From contig OZ220733.1 in the NCBI GenBank assembly GCA_965116875.1, positions 2,112,001-2,176,000 of the forward strand: 64,000 nt of DNA. The letters run 5' to 3'. The notes below the pieces were generated by a model that saw nothing but the letters and a program-made list of their open reading frames with translations, was not told where the DNA came from and made no database searches. Source of the stretch: Candidatus Latescibacterota bacterium. Lineage in GTDB: Bacteria; Latescibacterota; UBA2968; GCA-2709665. Both the position numbers and the translations under genes were made by a program. Positions 5,910 through 20,207 of the stretch are shown here, piece by piece (the first letter of the stretch is position 1; each line of letters begins with the position of its first letter).

Positions 5910-6382
5910 CCGTCATCGCCGCCATGGCCGACAACCGGGTGATCGGTAAAGACAATGCCATGCCATGGCGCATCTCCGAGGATCTCGTGCATTTCAAGAG
6001 AACGACCACGGGCGGCGTTCTCATCATGGGGCGCAAGACTTTTGAGTCCATCGGCTGCAGGCCCCTGCCGAACCGCCCCCACGTCATCGTCAGCCGCTCA
6101 CTCCCGGAAACCGCCGGCGTCGACGTCTGCCGCACGTTCGAAGCGGCGCTCGAGAAAGCCAGGTCCTACGGGAAGCCCGTGTTCAGCGCGGGCGGCGCCG
6201 AGATCTACCGCCAGTCCATTCCCCATGCGGATCGAATGTATCTCTCGCGCATCAAGGGCGACTATTGCGGCGACACGTACTTCCCCGAATTCGACGAGAG
6301 CGAATGGCGACTGACCAGGGAAGAAGAACGCGCCGAATTCACCCTGTGCGTGTATGAAAGAAGGGTAGAAGTGAGAGGGTAG
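5906..6382 (+). CDS. folA: Dihydrofolate reductase
   Basis: NRVIGKDNAMPW, IMGRKTFESIG, RPLPNR, GGAEIY, GDTYFP. ATGA overlap with rimO. Confidence 0.97.
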   Translation: MTVIAAMADNRVIGKDNAMPWRISEDLVHFKRTTTGGVLIMGRKTFESIGCRPLPNRPHVIVSRSLPETAGVDVCRTFEAALEKARSYGKPVFSAGGAEIYRQSIPHADRMYLSRIKGDYCGDTYFPEFDESEWRLTREEERAEFTLCVYERRVEVRG

Positions 6383-13783: not shown

Positions 13784-14530
13784 ATGACCCAGGCAACGAT
13801 ACTGGTCGCACCCACGGCGGACGACAACTGCCTGACGCAGGTTGTGGATGCGCTTCTGCACAGGGGAGTGTCGGTTGAGGCAGGCGTTCTGGATGGCTGT
13901 CCCGCGGTGGAAGAGGCACTGGCGGCATGCATTGAACAAGGAGCGAAGCGGATCGCGGTCCTGCCGTACATGTTTCGCGAGGACGAACAGGTTCTGCATC
14001 GGTTCCGACAGCGCCTGGGCAGGTTTCAAAAGGATCATGCCGATCTGGAAATCCACGTCGCGCCGGCGGTCGGTTTCGACGCGCGGCTGGTCGAAATCGC
14101 GCAGGATTACATCGAACAGACGGAATTCGGGCTGCACAATGATGACGGCCCGTCGTTGCTGACGATGGATGGATGTCTACCGGGGCCGATGGTCTTCACG
14201 TACGCGGACCTGAGTGGGCTTCCCGGGCAGATCGAGGACGTCGGCCGCATCATTACCGGGCGCCGCGGATCCGCGGTTTCCGTCGCCGGTCTCTTGAGAA
14301 GCGCCGCCGTGGGCGACGACGCGCGCCAGGCCGTTTTTCATTCGGCCGATGACGGGTACTTTGCCCGCGTCTCCCTCGCTGCGGCAGTTGAAAACGGCAT
14401 CCTCGTTTACCGCATCGGCGAACATCCGCTGCCGGAAAGACTCGGCGGCCCGATAAGACTGTTCATTCCCGAAACCGACGACAGATGCGCGAACGTCAAA
14501 AACGTGGTCCGAATGGAGTTGATCCCGTAG
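13784..14530 (+). CDS. CbiX/SirB-like domain fused to a molybdopterin-dependent oxidoreductase-like domain
   Basis: N-terminal GAKRIAVLPYMF...IHVAPAVGFDARLVEI (chelatase fold). C-terminal ILVYRIGEHPLPERLGGPIRLFIP...NVKNVVRMEL. GGAGA RBS before ATG 13784. Confidence 0.7.
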   Translation: MTQATILVAPTADDNCLTQVVDALLHRGVSVEAGVLDGCPAVEEALAACIEQGAKRIAVLPYMFREDEQVLHRFRQRLGRFQKDHADLEIHVAPAVGFDARLVEIAQDYIEQTEFGLHNDDGPSLLTMDGCLPGPMVFTYADLSGLPGQIEDVGRIITGRRGSAVSVAGLLRSAAVGDDARQAVFHSADDGYFARVSLAAAVENGILVYRIGEHPLPERLGGPIRLFIPETDDRCANVKNVVRMELIP

Positions 14531-14602
14531 TACCGACTCCGGCAACCGTCAGCGCGATCCTGAGCGCGGCTGAACAATTCTGCCTGAATTGGCCTCCGGG
14601 TA

Positions 14603-14720
14603 TTGACTTGAAATCAACAATCGGTTACTCTTTACATGAATCAGGACGCGGGCCTCTGTCTTGTGCTCCGTCTGCCGTCCCCCCGGCAGCCGGAATTACG
14701 GATAGAGGCCCGAATCAATT
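14603..14720 (+). ncRNA. Putative hairpin small RNA, copy 1, with its own sigma70 promoter
   Basis: TTGACT-17-TACTCT. Stem CGGGCCTCTGTC/GATAGAGGCCCG, inner TCCG/CGGA and CTGCCG/CGGCAG, loop TCCCCC. Homologous to 19407-19530. Confidence 0.55.
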
Positions 14721-14743
14721 GAGGACTGCGCTGCAAACGTAAA

Positions 14744-17700
14744 TCAGATCTGACCGAAGGCGTCTGCGAACTTCACAAAGTCGCCGAAACCGATGGCGCC
14801 ATCCTCATCCAGGTCGAACTTTGCGTCATATCCCGCGTCGCCTTCCCGCAGTCCGAAATGTCGCACGAACAACACAAAGTCAGCGAAGTTGACTGCCCCA
14901 TCACCGTCGAAATCGGCGTCGGGAGTTTGCGGAGGCACGGGAGGAGGCGGTACGTCATCGGCGAGATCCCATATCAGCATCGAGCCATCCCGCGATCCGG
15001 AAACCAGCGTGCTCCCGTCATCCAGGAACGCCACCGAATACACCCAGCCGGCATGCCCCTCCAGCCTGGCGGTCTCCGTCGTCGTGGCTACGTCCCATAT
15101 CCGGACGGTGCCGTCCTGCGATCCGGAGGCCAGCATACTCCCATCCGCGGAGAACGCCACCGAATACACCCAGCCGGTATGCCCCTCCAGCCTGGCGGTC
15201 TCCGTCCGAGTGGCCACGTCCCATATCCGGACGGTGCCGTCCTGCGATCCGGAGGCCAGTGTGCTCCCATCCTCGGACAAAGCCAACGAATAAACCCATC
15301 CTCCGTGTCCCTCAAGCGTGGCAACTTCCGTCCTCGCCGCCACGTCCCAAAGCTTCACGGTACGATCGCTGGACCCGGAAAACAGCGTATCCCCATCTGG
15401 TGAAAACACCACCGAGGCGACCCCGCCCGTGTGCTCATGCCCTTCGAGAACGGCAATCTCGGCGTGGGTCGCCAGGTTCCACACCGTCGCGGTACCCTGC
15501 CGCAATCCGGCAGCCAGTGTGCTCCCGTCCCGAGAAAACGCCACTGAATACACCCAACTGCGCGCGTCAAAGGTCGCAACCTCGGATCGTGCCGCCATGT
15601 CCCACAGCCTCACGGTATGGTCGCTCGAGCCTGAGGCCAGCTTGGCGCCGTCGGACGAAAACGAAACCGAGCGCACCCAATCCGTGTGCCCTTCCAGGGC
15701 AGCCACCTCGGTTCGCGTCTCTGCGTCCCACAACCGCACCTTGTTGTCCAGCGAACCGGTGGCGAGGATGCTCCCGTCGGGCGAAAGCGCCATCGACGTC
15801 AACGACCGATGCCCGTAAATGGCTGCCGAATTTCCCGTTTCCAGGTCCCGGACGATGACGTTGCCGTCCTCCGACGCGGACGCGAGAGTGGAGGCATTCC
15901 GCGAGAATGATACGGAATAGACCGGGTGGTTATGCTCTTCCAGCGTGTTGATCAGTTCCCGCGCGGTGACGTCCCAAAGCTTGACCCTGCCGTCGGTCGA
16001 ACCGGAGGCCAGTGTGGCGCCGTCACCTGAAAACGAAACTGAGGCGACGGGACCGCCATGCCCTTCGAAACGTGCGACCTCGATTTGCGCGACCACGTCC
16101 CACAGCCTTACCGAACGGTCGCTTGATCCTGAGGCCAGCATGCTCCCGTCCGGGGAAAACGCCACCGACGTGATGCCATTCGCATGCCCCTCGAGCGTGG
16201 CGACCCGGGCTCGCGCGGCCACGTCCCACAGACTGATCGTATTGTCGCTCGATCCCGATGCCAGCCTGCCGCCATCGGGAGAGAACGCCACCGAAGCGAC
16301 CCCAACCCGCTCGCGTTGCAAGGTGGCGACCCATGTACGCGTGACCAGATCCCATAGCCGGACCGTGCCGTCCTCGGACCCGGAGACGAGTGCGGTCCCG
16401 GTGGACGAGAACGCAACGGAACTGACGCCGTCCGTATGCCCGGCAAGGGTGGCGATCCTCGCGCCTGATGAAACATTCCAGAGTTCGATCCGCCCATCGT
16501 ACAACCCGGCGGCGAGGTTCCCCCGGCGGGAGAACGCCACAGTGCGAACACGACCGCCGCCAGGCAACAACACGGCTGCGCGGGAGACGATCGCGTCATA
16601 CAGCCACACGCCCACACCGCTGGCAACGGCCAACGTGCGTCCATCCGGAGACAGGGCGACCGCCCGGTCGCCCTGGGCGATTGCGCCCTTGCCCAGGCGC
16701 GCCGTGGCCCGCCAGGGCAGTTGCCACTTCCGGTAGTCTCCGTCCATTGTGATCACGGAAGCGCCTACTGCGTCAGCATTGAAGGTCGCCAGTTCCCTGC
16801 CGCCAAGGGTGACCACGACGGCATTCGCGCCGGCCCGGTTCCCCAGGGTCAGGGTGACGGCTGCCCGGCCGTCCGCGCCCGTGCGGGTATGCTGGACTGT
16901 ATAACTGCCGCTGAGCCTGCCCTGGCCGGCGGTAACCGCAAACGTGACCGCGGCATCGGGCAAGGGATCGCCGTTCCGATCTTTCACTTCCACGACAAAC
17001 GGGTCCGCAAGAGGCCCCCCGGGCGCGCCCTCCTGTCCATCTCCGGAGATCACCTCCAGCGCGAATGGCTGCAACCTCGGCCACTCCGACAGATCCCACA
17101 GCAGCACCGTGCCGTCTTCCGACCCCGAGGCCATCGTACCCCAATCCGGCGAAAACGCGACGGAATTGACATTGGCGTTATGCCCCGTCAGCGAAACGAC
17201 CCCGGTTCGCGCGCCCACCTCCCATATCCGGATCGTGTTGTCGTCTGATCCGGACGCCAGCCTGCTCCCATCCTGTGAATACGCCAGGGATGTTACGCCG
17301 CCCTCGTGTCCCAGAAGGGTTGCGGCCTGCGAATGGGAGGCCGCGTCCCACAGCTTGACCGCATTGTCGCTCGATCCGGAGGCCACCGTTCTCCCGTCCT
17401 GCGAAAAAACCACGGCATTGACACTCCCTCTATGCCCCTCAAGCGCGGCGATGCGCGATTGCGAGGCCACGTCCCACAAAATGACCGAGCCGTCCTTCGA
17501 GCCGGCCGCCAGCGTCTCCCCTTCAGGCGAAAACACCACCGATGCGATTCCGTCCGAACCGCCGTCCAGGGTCGCGGTCAGCCGCCGCGTATCGTCTTCC
17601 CACAGCAATACCGTTCCATCATCCGACGCGGTCGCCAGGATGGTCCCGTCGGGCGACCAGGCCGCCGCATTGACGCCGTCCTCATGTCGTTCGAAGGCGG

Positions 17701-19018
17701 CGGCCACCGTCTGCGCGGACATGTCCCAGAGAATGACCGTACTGTCTGCGGATGCGGTGGCAAGCGTGTCTCCGGCCGGCGCAAATGCCACGGAAGTCAC
17801 GCTGCCGTCATGCCCCCGGAGGATACCGAACTGCATGCCCGCGTTCACGTCCCACAGCTCGACCGCGCCGTGTACGGAACCGGTCACAAGCGTGTCCCCT
17901 GCCTGCGTAAATGCAAGCGACGTGACGGCGGGTTTGTGGCCGCCGAATGCGATAAAGTAGCCTGTCTCTACATCCCAGTACCGGGCCGTACCATCCTCCG
18001 AGGTGGTGGCCAGTATGCTGCCGTCCATTGAAAACACGACTGCAGTGACGCTTCCCGTATGGCCTTCAAGGGCGTCGAACTCTCTTCCTCTGTTGACGTC
18101 CCAGAGCCTCACCACCCCATCCTCTGATACGGCGGCGAGCGTGTCCGTTTGCGGTGAAAACGCGACCAGCGTGATAGGACCTGTTTCCGCCTGGAGGGTG
18201 TCTGCCGCGGATAGCGAGGCGACGTCCCACAGCAGGACCAGACTGTCGCCTGACGCGGTGGCCAGTGTGCCGCCGTCTCGGGAAAACGACAGCGCAGTGA
18301 TACGTTTCGGAACCCCGTCGAGGCTGCCGACCCGCGTTCCGGTACTTACGTTCCACAGCAAGACCTCGCCGTCTTCCGACGCGGCGGCCAGCGTGCCGCC
18401 ATCCGGCGAGAATTCAACCGAAATGACGGTCTCCGTATGCCCTTCAAGGGTCGCCGCCAGTGTGCGAGACGCCGCATCCCACACAGAAACTGTGCCATCT
18501 TCCGAGGCTGCGACCAACGTGTCCCCTGTCGGCGAGAACAATGCCGAAGAGATATCGCCCGCAAGCCCGTTGAGAGTCCCAGTCTCCGATCGCGTCGCGA
18601 CGTCCCAGAGCAATACCGCGCCATCCTCCGTAACGGCCGCCACCGTCCCCCCATCCTGAGAAAAGGATACGGAATTGACCCGAACGTGACTCGGCAACAG
18701 CGCAAGGGTGTGGCCCGTCGCCCCATCGTACAACCAGACACCGATGCTGCTGGCCACGGCAAGCGTATGCCCGTCGGAAGAAATGTCCACCGTGCGGTCA
18801 CCGGAGCCGATCGCTCCTTTACCCAGACGCGCGGTCGCACCGTCGGGCAGATGCCGCGTCCGGTGGTCCTCCTCCATCGCCTCGGCGGCCGCAGCGCACA
18901 CCGGAACCCCGCCGAGTACAGCGGCGAGCGCCAGAATCGACACTGTCAATTTCCCGTTGAAATACGCGCTGCCCATGCCAGACCCCTTTTCCGTTGCCAC
19001 GATGGTGAAAACCTCCAC
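14744..19018 (-). CDS. Secreted WD40-repeat protein with two propeller blocks, an Ig-like (Big-1-type) linker and a C-terminal dockerin/EF-hand-like domain
   Basis: More than 20 LEGH...VxSVAFSPDG..LASGS.DGTVRLWD repeats. ISGDGQEG...PFVVEV Ig-like motif. DFDGDGAVNFADF...DLDEDGAIGFGDF. Signal peptide; true start probably 18976. Confidence 0.93.
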   Translation of the reverse strand: MEVFTIVATEKGSGMGSAYFNGKLTVSILALAAVLGGVPVCAAAAEAMEEDHRTRHLPDGATARLGKGAIGSGDRTVDISSDGHTLAVASSIGVWLYDGATGHTLALLPSHVRVNSVSFSQDGGTVAAVTEDGAVLLWDVATRSETGTLNGLAGDISSALFSPTGDTLVAASEDGTVSVWDAASRTLAATLEGHTETVISVEFSPDGGTLAAASEDGEVLLWNVSTGTRVGSLDGVPKRITALSFSRDGGTLATASGDSLVLLWDVASLSAADTLQAETGPITLVAFSPQTDTLAAVSEDGVVRLWDVNRGREFDALEGHTGSVTAVVFSMDGSILATTSEDGTARYWDVETGYFIAFGGHKPAVTSLAFTQAGDTLVTGSVHGAVELWDVNAGMQFGILRGHDGSVTSVAFAPAGDTLATASADSTVILWDMSAQTVAAAFERHEDGVNAAAWSPDGTILATASDDGTVLLWEDDTRRLTATLDGGSDGIASVVFSPEGETLAAGSKDGSVILWDVASQSRIAALEGHRGSVNAVVFSQDGRTVASGSSDNAVKLWDAASHSQAATLLGHEGGVTSLAYSQDGSRLASGSDDNTIRIWEVGARTGVVSLTGHNANVNSVAFSPDWGTMASGSEDGTVLLWDLSEWPRLQPFALEVISGDGQEGAPGGPLADPFVVEVKDRNGDPLPDAAVTFAVTAGQGRLSGSYTVQHTRTGADGRAAVTLTLGNRAGANAVVVTLGGRELATFNADAVGASVITMDGDYRKWQLPWRATARLGKGAIAQGDRAVALSPDGRTLAVASGVGVWLYDAIVSRAAVLLPGGGRVRTVAFSRRGNLAAGLYDGRIELWNVSSGARIATLAGHTDGVSSVAFSSTGTALVSGSEDGTVRLWDLVTRTWVATLQRERVGVASVAFSPDGGRLASGSSDNTISLWDVAARARVATLEGHANGITSVAFSPDGSMLASGSSDRSVRLWDVVAQIEVARFEGHGGPVASVSFSGDGATLASGSTDGRVKLWDVTARELINTLEEHNHPVYSVSFSRNASTLASASEDGNVIVRDLETGNSAAIYGHRSLTSMALSPDGSILATGSLDNKVRLWDAETRTEVAALEGHTDWVRSVSFSSDGAKLASGSSDHTVRLWDMAARSEVATFDARSWVYSVAFSRDGSTLAAGLRQGTATVWNLATHAEIAVLEGHEHTGGVASVVFSPDGDTLFSGSSDRTVKLWDVAARTEVATLEGHGGWVYSLALSEDGSTLASGSQDGTVRIWDVATRTETARLEGHTGWVYSVAFSADGSMLASGSQDGTVRIWDVATTTETARLEGHAGWVYSVAFLDDGSTLVSGSRDGSMLIWDLADDVPPPPVPPQTPDADFDGDGAVNFADFVLFVRHFGLREGDAGYDAKFDLDEDGAIGFGDFVKFADAFGQI

Positions 19019-19335
19019 CCGCTTCGCGCGTGGTGGAAGCTCCGGGGTTCGACCACGGGGAGTGTCGCGCGCGGAACCCGGATCAAACCCTCAGCGTCGC
19101 AATAATATACGCGAATTGCGGGTAGATTTGTGATCTTTTTTCATAAAGACCGGGGGCTGGTTTCGGGGAAATTTAAGATTTCCACGCGGCGTTTGATCAG
19201 GCCCCTGGCCGCTACCGGGAGACGAAGAAGACGCAAAAGGCTGAAGCCGTAGCATCAACGGTCGACCAGGGCGCCGCGGCTCCCGCGTTCTCCTTGCCGG
19301 CGGTCAGACGGCGATCCGGAATGCCGCTCGCCTGA

Positions 19336-19367
19336 CCGATCTACACACACTTGTGTGTGTAGATCGG
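19336..19367. repeat. Perfect 15-bp inverted repeat
   Basis: CCGATCTACACACAC-TT-GTGTGTGTAGATCGG. Confidence 0.85.
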
Positions 19368-19406
19368 GTTCCGCTCTTCGCGACACGGGAATTCGGCATA
19401 TGGGTC

Positions 19407-19530
19407 TTGACTGGAAGGCGGGAATCGGATATATCTAATTGTGATTCAGGACGCGGGCCCCATTCGAGTACTCAGCCTGTTTCTCCCTCCCGGCAGGCGT
19501 AGATTCGAATCGGGGCCCGTATTTCATTAC
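19407..19530 (+). ncRNA. Putative hairpin small RNA, copy 2, with its own sigma70 promoter
   Basis: TTGACT-17-TATATC. Stems CGGGCCCC/GGGGCCCG, ATTCGAGT/ATTCGAAT and GCCTGT/GCAGGC, with a C-rich loop TCTCCCTCC. Confidence 0.55.
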
Positions 19531-19580
19531 CCCCCGGCGATTTCCTGAACGCGCGCTGGACCCGCGTGCAAGGCAAACTG

Positions 19581-20207
19581 TCACCACACGGCGGGATGGC
19601 TGCCGGCCAGAATCAGCGGGCGGACGGATTCGGCCTGGTACTGCGCAGCCGTAATCAGTTCGTCGTTCAGGAGTTCCAGTAGCAGGCGGTTTCGGAGATT
19701 GATCGCGTGTTCCGGTTCGTCTACCGGGGGAGGCGCGTCGGGAAAGCGGGCGAGATGGAACAGCAGGATGGCTTCTCCCGTGGTCATCTGCCCGGGAGAT
19801 ATTCCAAAATAGGCGCGCGCCGCGCGTTTGAAACCCGATACGGAAGTACCTCTGGGCAGGGCGAACGGCGTCCGTTCGAAAAAGAAAGCCTGCAGGCTTT
19901 CTTTTTCGTATTTGCGGGCGATCAGGAAGGCGAAGCAGGCGCGTTTGAACCCGCCGACAGCGTCCGGACCAACCGGAGGCGCCAGTTGTTCCGCGAGAAG
20001 CCGGGAAAGGTCTGCCGTGGAAAGCGAGTCCGCAACCCTTTTCAGAATGGAAGGGAGGCCGGACGCCGCGGGCGCTTCCGGTACAGCGCCAAGAAGGCCG
20101 TCCAACTCACTCGAATACCCGTTGAGGACAACGCCTGCAAGCGAGGCCGCGAGCGCCACCGGTATCATGATCATCAGGACGGATCGAAGAGAGCGTCGTG
20201 GCATCAT
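19581..20207 (-). CDS. Membrane-anchored degenerate GT51 transglycosylase-like protein
   Basis: N-terminal TM helix. KYEKE...GFKRAARAYFG...TGEAILL...RNRLL..L...LIT resembles the C-terminal half of a PBP transglycosylase. ATGA overlap with the upstream gene. Confidence 0.6.
   Translation of the reverse strand: MMPRRSLRSVLMIMIPVALAASLAGVVLNGYSSELDGLLGAVPEAPAASGLPSILKRVADSLSTADLSRLLAEQLAPPVGPDAVGGFKRACFAFLIARKYEKESLQAFFFERTPFALPRGTSVSGFKRAARAYFGISPGQMTTGEAILLFHLARFPDAPPPVDEPEHAINLRNRLLLELLNDELITAAQYQAESVRPLILAGSHPAVW

Follow-up and report, generated by a model that had tools for sequence, protein, structure and literature searches.

Two hairpin elements flanking a WD40-repeat gene as candidate members of a small RNA family in Candidatus Latescibacterota

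The window analysed here is a stretch of 64,000 nt from the 5.45-Mb genome of a Candidatus Latescibacterota bacterium (contig OZ220733.1). Two related elements, spanning positions 14603-14715 (copy 1) and 19407-19520 (copy 2), were identified on its plus strand on either side of a large WD40-repeat gene. The features of the locus are as follows:

14603-14631, plus strand: promoter-like region of copy 1, with -35 box TTGACT (14603-14608), a 17-nt spacer ending in AATCGGT and -10-like box TACTCT (14626-14631)
14636-14722, plus strand: predicted sRNA of copy 1, approximately 80-87 nt with putative ends (covariance model R1, 93.1 bits, E 2.9e-24)
14649-14712, plus strand: hairpin of copy 1 (dG -44.1 kcal/mol, z -5.26), with apical loop UCCCCC (14678-14683)
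14744-19018, minus strand: WD40-repeat gene, 1424 aa (Pfam WD40, 24 stretches)
19407-19435, plus strand: promoter-like region of copy 2, with -35 box TTGACT (19407-19412), a 17-nt spacer ending in AATCGGA and -10-like box TATATC (19430-19435)
19441-19530, plus strand: predicted sRNA of copy 2, approximately 85-90 nt with putative ends (covariance model R1, 85.9 bits, E 4.8e-22)
19453-19520, plus strand: hairpin of copy 2 (dG -41.5 kcal/mol, z -5.17), with apical loop UCUCCCUCCC (19482-19491)

A preliminary description of this DNA had reported a promoter box, a 17-nt spacer, a shared leader, a hairpin of approximately 65 nt and a C-rich loop, and all of these were seen in both copies. The TTGACT boxes were likewise present in each, although that of copy 2 starts one base earlier (19407) than had been implied. 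On the 3' side of the -10-like box the leader reads TGAATCAGGACGCGGGCC in copy 1 and TGATTCAGGACGCGGGCC in copy 2. The start of the copy 1 sRNA was placed 5-7 nt after the -10 box and its 3' end just past the hairpin, both being predicted positions. The hairpins are followed by the tails AAUCAAUUG (copy 1) and UAUUUCAUU (copy 2), the U-tract of each being weak. The orientation of the elements relative to the WD40 ORF was as had been described, copy 1 being convergent with its 3' end and copy 2 divergent from its 5' end. The two copies are paralogues arising from a tandem duplication.

None of 200 shuffled sequences for either copy was as stable as the native hairpin, and the reverse strands were found to fold less well (z -3.3 for copy 1 and -3.1 for copy 2). 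The sequences of the mid-stems differ between the two copies and both nevertheless pair in the predicted folds, in agreement with the preliminary description. The C-rich loop motif is unpaired in the minimum free energy folds. That of copy 2 includes the heptamer CCCUCCC (19485-19491), the motif of the family described below, while copy 1 carries a CCCCCC variant lacking the U of CCUCC.

A search of the 5.45-Mb genome with a covariance model returned only these two sites (E 3e-24 and 5e-22), with the next best match at E 0.44. A 14-mer of the leader was found to occur exactly three times in this genome; the third site (547871) was rejected as an additional copy, consisting of coding-like sequence with no hairpin. 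The preliminary description had not recognised the elements as a known family and had proposed a cmscan comparison, which bore this out, as Rfam 15 gave no matches at the gathering score over the whole 64-kb window. Over positions 14400-19800 there were no Rfam 15 matches at E<=10. When seven loci with family members were scanned, Rfam returned GcvB alone, whose 23.4 bits (E 0.33) fall short of the gathering score of 42. A full-text search of the literature (Latescibacter with small RNA) found no published regulatory RNA in Candidatus Latescibacterota.

Within the genus, 23 copies were identified, with the element being present in 15 of 15 genomes and always at one intergenic position, flanked by the genes for CbiX/Oxidored_molyb and Transgly. 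Seven of the 15 genomes possess a single copy, and the twin arrangement emphasized in the preliminary description is thus not supported as the basic state of the element; in genome G003 the two copies lie in tandem, 285 bp apart. The preliminary description had also called for a covariance-model search of the phylum, and this identified 49 further members in other genera, all belonging to the same order. Matches to model R2 were found in 18 of the 21 genomes of f1 and 24 of the 31 genomes of f2 of the order, in none of the three genomes of f3 and, as a marginal match, in one of the 76 genomes of f4, with none among a phylum sample of 102 genomes across 12 other families. Only one or two copies per genome were found in these searches. 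The matches to model R2 also included a third match in G052 (29.8 bits), one on G010:C33 (27.2 bits) and one in G081 (24.2 bits). A further candidate on G021:C11 (model R1, 17.4 bits) retains leader-like words with a different, short hairpin and was taken as a chance match. Among the genomes covered by these model searches, only one order of Candidatus Latescibacterota contains the family. The upstream same-strand gene is CbiX-like in the window and an MTS methyltransferase in one subfamily of the members.

The preliminary description had argued from the two copies that structure is conserved over sequence. This argument is weak alone, and covariation among the 23 copies of the genus was not significant, with double changes in 2 of the 24 pairs, a level that shuffled alignments reach; however, inclusion of the distant members gave real covariation. 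In an alignment of 63 members, 19 of the 24 pairs were found to have changed on both sides (273 cells), although the alignment was fitted to the model and few clades are represented, so that the independent events are far fewer than the number of cells. None of 500 shuffles reached any of the measures used. The covariation score of this alignment was 0.543, compared to 0.260 for shuffled alignments and at most 0.112 for slid controls. Pairing was retained in 92.6% of cells, with 37-46% pairing in the slid controls. In the strand test of the family, pairing was 92.7% on this strand and 81.0% on the opposite strand, and 202 G-U pairs were counted. RNAalifold, applied to the same 63-member alignment, recovered 19 pairs unaided, of which 14 had compensatory changes. 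A MAFFT alignment with the distant members (A6) was left out of these counts due to two of them being mis-registered, and a covariance-model alignment (A5) was discarded because it contained reverse-strand rows. Compensatory changes of this kind are the general mark of a structured non-coding RNA family, and the elements possess them.

Promoter-like sequence of the form TTG[AC]C[TA]-17-TA.... was found at all 23 genus copies, with TAACAT as the -10 box in seven. Both window copies match TTGACA at five of six positions with a 17-nt spacer, and their -10 boxes match TATAAT at three of six (copy 1) and four of six positions (copy 2, the final T being absent). No promoter was called by a simple sigma-70 scan of positions 14300-19800, which is due to these weak -10 boxes. 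Outside the genus, a promoter-like motif lies upstream at a fixed distance in 49 of 49 members, in the form TTGAC-N17-19-TAnnnT in 26 and GGAAC-N15-18-CGT in 23. The -10 box of the TTGAC subfamily ends 9-10 nt before the stem, making the unit essentially a promoter and a hairpin. In one subfamily the final part of the upstream ORF and the GGAAC box overlap, and conservation of the box may therefore come from coding. At least six U residues within 9 nt past the stem were found in 48 of the 49 members outside the genus, which suggests a second role for the hairpin in intrinsic termination. A U-rich tail was seen in only 2 of 14 genus rows, and U-runs were also noted in genus genomes G012, G001 and G009. 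The stems of both window copies are GC-rich, and neither hairpin was called as a terminator by a scan of positions 14300-19800. With their own promoter-like motifs and terminator tails, the members are consistent with the preliminary reading of a conserved, covarying sRNA family whose transcription is predicted. On balance, the two elements are probably sister genes of a previously undescribed sRNA family of uncultured Latescibacterota.

Of the 63 loops, 58 contain the heptamer CCCUCCC; the underlying stems and the bases flanking the heptamer vary among members. The 16S-like 3' end of the host genome carries CCTCC, the same core as that of the loop motif, which makes the analogy with anti-Shine-Dalgarno-like sRNAs such as 6C and cuckoo, drawn in the preliminary description, a fair functional one. 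That the host uses Shine-Dalgarno sites was apparent from a peak of GGAGG at -15..-9 before crude ORF starts, and from Shine-Dalgarno-like words upstream of 1113 of 3515 starts as compared to 539 of 3427 internal controls. In the predicted folds the loop thus presents an unpaired C-rich motif complementary to the host Shine-Dalgarno sequence, as expected of a trans-acting anti-Shine-Dalgarno sRNA. Hfq was not found in the host genome.

In a duplex-energy scan, the region -35..+15 of the 3515 crude ORF starts was no richer in pairing than internal controls (mean energies of -16.95 and -16.19 kcal/mol for starts, and of -19.11 and -17.35 kcal/mol for controls), although the scan was badly designed, its queries including stem bases and its gene starts being crude. 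GGGAGGG was observed near starts 20 times against 4.8 expected, which is no more enriched than GGAGG (342 against 103.5). In the one metatranscriptome found (X1, Logan contigs, 0.07 of words), pieces of coding genes were recovered at 90-99% likeness, with no cover over positions 14363-14804 or 19004-19887; small RNAs are rarely assembled, and this gap is therefore no evidence either way. Two further sequencing runs, likewise Logan contigs, were noted, their type being unrecorded.

Anti-Shine-Dalgarno-like C-rich loop motifs are a feature of the cuckoo/CcsR-type and RsaE/RoxS-type sRNAs, which are often multicopy, possess two or more hairpins and belong to other phyla. The RNA described here differs from these in architecture and phylum, and no Rfam family matched it. 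RoxS-type sRNAs are described as typically pairing with ribosome-binding sites. The report on LhrC (PMC4132741) cites a UCCC motif in RsaE. By analogy, the Latescibacterota RNA is best read as resembling LhrC, RepG and 6C in mechanism while not being a member of those families. LhrC1-5 of Listeria monocytogenes are described as multicopy sibling sRNAs, some in tandem, that are induced by envelope stress, and their CU-rich, UCCC-containing hairpin loops, including that of the terminator, bind the G-rich Shine-Dalgarno region of lapB, resulting in repression (PMC4132741). The multicopy siblings and C-rich loop motif are shared features, and the ECF-like promoter of one subfamily, if real, would parallel the stress induction. 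However, LhrC as described has three binding sites, located on two stem-loops and a single-stranded motif, whereas the RNA described here has one hairpin with one motif, and it belongs to an unrelated phylum, with unrelated sequence and no Rfam match.

The C/U-rich loop of the RepG terminator hairpin in Helicobacter pylori is reported to itself bind mRNA, pairing with a G-run in the 5' UTR (PMC8295292). A C-rich loop on a terminator-type hairpin is likewise the proposed mRNA-binding site here, although it is a fixed CCCUCCC mirroring the Shine-Dalgarno site, and there is no sequence relationship. The actinobacterial 6C sRNA is reported to pair through its C-rich loops with G-rich ribosome-binding sites, doing so in a high-GC host independently of Hfq and ProQ (PMC6486639). 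A C-rich loop and a host in which Hfq was not found are features in common, whereas 6C, according to its description, possesses several stems and two C-rich loops, and the Rfam scan gave no match to it.

The best reading of the elements, held with slightly better than even confidence, is a trans-acting sRNA of the anti-Shine-Dalgarno type, whose CCUCC-like loop would probably block the ribosome-binding sites of mRNAs. Such an RNA would be minimal, consisting of a leader of approximately 12 nt behind a sigma-70-like promoter and one long GC-clamped hairpin that would also serve as the transcription terminator. The hairpin would serve to present at its tip, in unpaired form, the C-rich heptamer (CCCUCCC in copy 2, the CCCCCC variant in copy 1), which may pair in trans with G-rich Shine-Dalgarno regions (GGGAGGG-type) of putative target mRNAs. 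This pairing would block ribosome binding and/or alter mRNA stability, without Hfq. The anti-Shine-Dalgarno loop strategy is represented among Firmicutes, Actinobacteria, Alphaproteobacteria and Helicobacter, and the family would add an uncultured phylum that seemingly lacks Hfq. It is a well-supported candidate with a testable seed (CCCUCCC) and a very simple architecture, whose paralogues appear to differ in promoter type, and its covariance model, covering approximately 70 loci, would be of use to annotators. A bolder and rather improbable proposal is that of a minimal riboregulator, active throughout the order and independent of Hfq, with no functional part beyond the terminator hairpin. 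The tip of this hairpin would bear a copy of the anti-Shine-Dalgarno core of the ribosome and would selectively silence mRNAs whose GGGAGGG ribosome-binding sites are especially strong. Paralogues of such a riboregulator would be under different sigma factors, with housekeeping-type and ECF-type stress promoters deploying the same seed under different conditions, and its candidate targets would include tandem arrays of eukaryote-like WD40-repeat genes. The host bacteria are probably sponge-associated.

It is also conceivable, but unlikely, that the RNA is real and acts as a protein-binding or decoy RNA, its C-rich loop being recognised by an RNA-binding protein, the ribosome or the translation machinery. 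An invariant 7-nt loop above covarying stems would suit contact with a protein or RNP equally well, the seed comprises only 7 nt, and target enrichment was not found in the scans. However, no candidate partner gene is linked to the elements, with neighbours differing between subfamilies; the mode of action of C-rich loops studied experimentally is base-pairing to G-rich ribosome-binding sites, and the varying loop flanks would be tolerable for a short antisense seed. Somewhat less probable again is a primarily cis role for the hairpins, in which they would terminate transcription of the same-strand gene upstream or stabilise its 3' UTR, any sRNA being a by-product. Both window hairpins do lie downstream of same-strand or convergent genes, members of one subfamily lie 39-125 nt past the methyltransferase ORF on the same strand, and the U-tails outside the genus (48 of 49) fit such a role. 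Against this, a loop sequence as constant throughout an order as that seen here (58 of 63) would be unusual for a terminator, promoter-like motifs are found at a fixed upstream distance in all 49 distant and 23 genus members, the TTGAC unit is essentially promoter and hairpin, and copy 2 is without a same-strand gene upstream.

Translation of the element as a leaderless micro-peptide of 23-37 aa, from an ATG, GTG or TTG at the predicted transcription start, is highly unlikely. Reading from an NTG 3-7 nt after the -10 box, the frame stays open in 22 of the 23 genus copies, and in 14 of the 23 the predicted products are 23 aa long and resemble one another. Yet a run of 23 codons without a stop is estimated to be not unusual in GC-rich DNA. 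G004 carries a stop at codon 3, the start is GTG or TTG in 10 of 23 copies, and a 2-nt indel in the loop shifts a-type and b-type copies into different frames after it. Furthermore, the start codon outside the genus has no conserved position or frame, and substitutions track base-pairing rather than codon position. The least probable explanation, largely refuted, is that of DNA-level direct repeats without an RNA function, being duplication scars or recombination sites that flank a mobile WD40 cassette. Two copies in direct orientation do flank one gene here, and the single copy of G004, which has no WD40 gene, is chimeric. Nevertheless, G005, G010 and G014 conserve a single copy in the absence of any WD40 gene, the copies of G003 stand in tandem, only one or two copies occur per genome, and unlinked members of other genera covary in structure. 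A special tie to the WD40 gene was not supported, as five genus genomes lack the gene and three possess it with only one RNA copy; the gene is a passenger and not an obligate partner or part of the RNA unit. As a direct target of the proposed trans-acting sRNA the window WD40 gene was rejected, since complementarity in its upstream region does not go beyond a GGAGG-type site. The repeats themselves account for the presence/absence polymorphism of this large gene: in G004 the promoter is 94.9% like copy 1, while the body (92.3%) and 3' flank (90.9%) are like copy 2, which is the outcome expected of recombination between the repeats.

Two promoter-like and hairpin elements lie on the forward strand of the window (copy 1, 14603-14715; copy 2, 19407-19520), and the boxes, leader, hairpin and C-rich loop that the preliminary description had ascribed to each were confirmed in the sequence.

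Features of the element region (window coordinates; boxes, spacers and leaders as read from the sequence)
14603-14608, +, copy 1 -35 box TTGACT
17 nt, +, copy 1 spacer, 3' end AATCGGT
14626-14631, +, copy 1 -10-like box TACTCT
+, copy 1 leader TGAATCAGGACGCGGGCC
14649-14712, +, copy 1 hairpin, loop UCCCCC
19407-19412, +, copy 2 -35 box TTGACT
17 nt, +, copy 2 spacer, 3' end AATCGGA
19430-19435, +, copy 2 -10-like box TATATC
+, copy 2 leader TGATTCAGGACGCGGGCC
19453-19520, +, copy 2 hairpin, loop UCUCCCUCCC
14744-19018, -, WD40-repeat ORF between the copies, 1424-aa product
one flank of the element region, +, CbiX/Oxidored_molyb gene
other flank of the element region, -, Transgly-Metallophos/HAD gene string

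The hairpins of copies 1 and 2 have a dG of -44.1 and -41.5 kcal/mol, respectively (z about -5.2, with 0/200 shuffles equally stable), and folding of the opposite strand is weaker (z about -3.2). A simple sigma-70 and terminator scan called neither window element, because the -10 boxes match at just 3/6 and 4/6 positions and the tails are not U-rich. An 85-aa ORF (14485-14742, +) with no Pfam match spans all of copy 1; it is probably spurious, and an annotation could wrongly list it as a gene. Approximately 45 nt 5' of the copy 2 -35 box, toward the WD40 upstream region, is a 13-bp inverted repeat (GATCTACACACAC / GTGTGTGTAGATC, loop of 2 nt, 19338-19365), one arm of which was found once more in the genome, at 4334429; the repeat was not seen 5' of copy-2 orthologues in relatives.

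The preliminary description had not recognised this type of RNA, and Rfam 15 likewise gave no match at or above gathering score across the entire window and none at E<=10 within 14400-19800. A covariance model built from genus copies matched only the two elements in the whole 5.45-Mb genome (E 3e-24 and 5e-22, against 0.44 for the runner-up), while the 14-mer of the shared leader occurs at exactly three sites, the third being coding-like and without a hairpin. With only these matches, a dispersed repeat was rejected. The elements constitute a previously undescribed sRNA family, one more member of an established class, the anti-Shine-Dalgarno-type regulators with a C-rich loop. Support is good for the RNA gene and for its structure, and the expression, ends and targets of the RNA are predicted.

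By blastn, each of the other 14 genus genomes (G001-G014) contains the element (E<=2e-9), and the 26 genomes searched from other genera gave no credible match (best E 0.14). Twenty-three copies were extracted from the 15 genomes (two in eight, one in seven), all forming a single long hairpin (dG -37 to -47 kcal/mol). Orthologues of copy 1 (94-96%) are present in G002, G003, G006 and G008, and those of copy 2 (85-90%) in G003-G006 and G008. In G007 the two copies (locus L048, 8501-8592 and 12819-12910) share 95% mutual identity, versus 69-80% between copies elsewhere, which suggests gene conversion or recent re-duplication.

The genus model retrieved four distant members from other genera, and with these added it was searched in 132 genomes of the class. 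Members were identified in 18/21 genomes of family f1 and 24/31 of f2, these positives including 21/21 genomes of genus g6, mostly with two unlinked copies each; there were none in f3 (0/3) and one marginal match among 76 genomes of f4. In a phylum sample of 151 genomes matches were confined to f1 and f2, with no members in the 102 sampled genomes of twelve other families.

Within the genus, 91.5% of alignment cells are paired and both-side changes occur in 2/24 pairs, a level that shuffles reach, the sequence being too conserved for structure to be testable; the covariation claimed earlier from two copies was therefore suggestive but not proof. A 63-member alignment comprised 14 of the 23 genus copies (from 10 supplied loci) and all 49 non-genus members. 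In this alignment, which was fitted to the model and has its changes grouped in a few clades, 92.6% of cells are paired, with both-side changes at 19/24 pairs (273 cells). None of 500 shuffles reached any of five measures, and sliding the 3' partners as a control lowered pairing to 37-46%. RNAalifold independently predicted 19 pairs from the same rows, with compensatory changes in 14. With 202 G-U pairs, and with pairing of 92.7% on the element strand versus 81.0% on the opposite one, the strand of the RNA is fixed. The apical loop holds CCCUCCC in 58/63 members above stems that differ wholly between subfamilies, with a CCCCCC variant in copy 1 and its four orthologues.

Upstream, all 23 genus copies have TTG[AC]C[TA], separated by 17 nt, the last of which read (A)ATCGG, from a hexamer that starts with TA (TAACAT in seven). 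Every one of the 49 distant members carries, at a fixed distance, either of two motifs. TTGAC-N17-19-TAnnnT (26/49) ends 9-29 nt from the stem, mostly 10 nt, so that the leader is just a few bases. GGAAC-N15-18-CGT (23/49) ends 34-38 nt from the stem and resembles the ECF sigma factor consensus; its GGAAC overlaps the final codons of an upstream ORF for an MTS-type methyltransferase and may therefore be conserved for coding reasons. In a g6 subfamily starting AUAGUUGG (L111, L112, L114, L119-L121, L143 and others), located directly 3' of the MTS-type methyltransferase gene, GGAAC-N16-CGTT replaces TTGAC/TA, and in several genomes CO-dehydrogenase-type FAD and 2Fe-2S subunit genes lie downstream. 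At least six U occur within nine bases past the stem in 48/49 non-genus members, making their hairpin a textbook intrinsic terminator. In the window's genus such a tail is present in 2/14 rows and most tails have decayed, with U-runs retained in G012, G001 and G009.

CCTCC is present at the genome's 16S-like 3' end, GGAGG has a sharp peak between -15 and -9 relative to crude ORF starts, and Shine-Dalgarno-like words precede 1113/3515 starts versus 539/3427 internal controls. A search with the Hfq profile (PF17209) matched control genomes but not this genome, a single contig of 97.7% completeness. The rigid stem would display CCCUCCC as a chaperone-independent antisense seed for G-rich ribosome-binding sites, and the sRNA would act in trans, repressing translation of mRNAs with GGGAGGG-type Shine-Dalgarno sites. 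This proposal, which we consider about as likely to hold as to fail, is favoured on account of the rigid CCCUCCC stem and, by analogy, of LhrC, RepG and 6C. Experiments showed a C-rich motif of LhrC, terminator loop included, to act against G-rich ribosome-binding sites (PMC4132741), and a C/U-rich loop in the terminator of RepG (PMC8295292) and C-rich loops of 6C (PMC6486639) to act as antisense seeds for sites of this kind.

GGGAGGG occurs at 20 sites in the -25..-1 region of 3515 starts versus 4.8 expected, a 4.2-fold enrichment about equal to that of plain GGAGG (3.3-fold), and a duplex-energy scan of ORF starts with loop-plus-stem queries showed no enrichment at starts. Five of the 20 sites belong to a tandem array of approximately a dozen WD40-repeat paralogues (G000:C1:145000-172000; L156, L157), in near-identical leaders at 148-170 kb where GGGAGGG, which is fully complementary to the loop motif of the family, lies 12-14 nt 5' of the ATG. 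Three further paralogues have GGGAGGA. These five leaders, among 34 WD40-like ORFs, count as one event since the leader was inherited by common descent, and the genes are a single candidate target lead. The window's WD40 gene has an ordinary GGAGG-type site only.

A protein-binding or decoy RNA is a viable alternative to trans-acting repression, as it fits the invariant loop and the target scans gave no targets. That same invariance argues against a pure cis terminator or 3'-UTR element, as do the promoter-like boxes upstream and the lack of an upstream same-strand gene at copy 2. A DNA-only repeat is refuted by unlinked members covarying in structure. A leaderless micro-ORF could begin with the NTG situated at the predicted transcription start, the frame being open for 23-37 codons in 22/23 genus copies, but this is argued against by a stop at codon 3 in G004, GTG or TTG starts in 10/23 copies, a 2-nt indel that shifts the frame between paralogues, and retention of neither start codon nor frame outside the genus.

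A special relationship of the elements with the bracketed WD40 gene is not supported by comparison across the genus. By synteny, the site of the RNA lies between the CbiX and Transgly genes. The WD40 gene is flanked by two copies in seven genomes (G000, G002, G006, G007, G008, G011, G013), accompanied by the Transgly-side copy only in three (G001, G009, G012) and absent from five, of which G003 has tandem copies 285 bp apart and G004, G005, G010 and G014 one copy each. Bracketing is therefore a by-product of the tandem pair and not a functional WD40 pairing. The single G004 copy (L045, G004:C197, about 5990-6120) is a chimera of the window copies: identity to copies 1 and 2 is, respectively, 94.9% and 61.5% in the promoter, 76.9% and 92.3% in the body, and 48.5% and 90.9% in the 3' flank. 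Such a copy is what homologous recombination between the direct repeats would be expected to leave, and it suggests that the WD40 gene was deleted in this way. Within the WD40 gene (16100-18800), DNA contigs of sequencing runs X2 and X3 have numerous skip joints, which fits assembly collapse over the gene's internal repeats, or related paralogues present in those samples.
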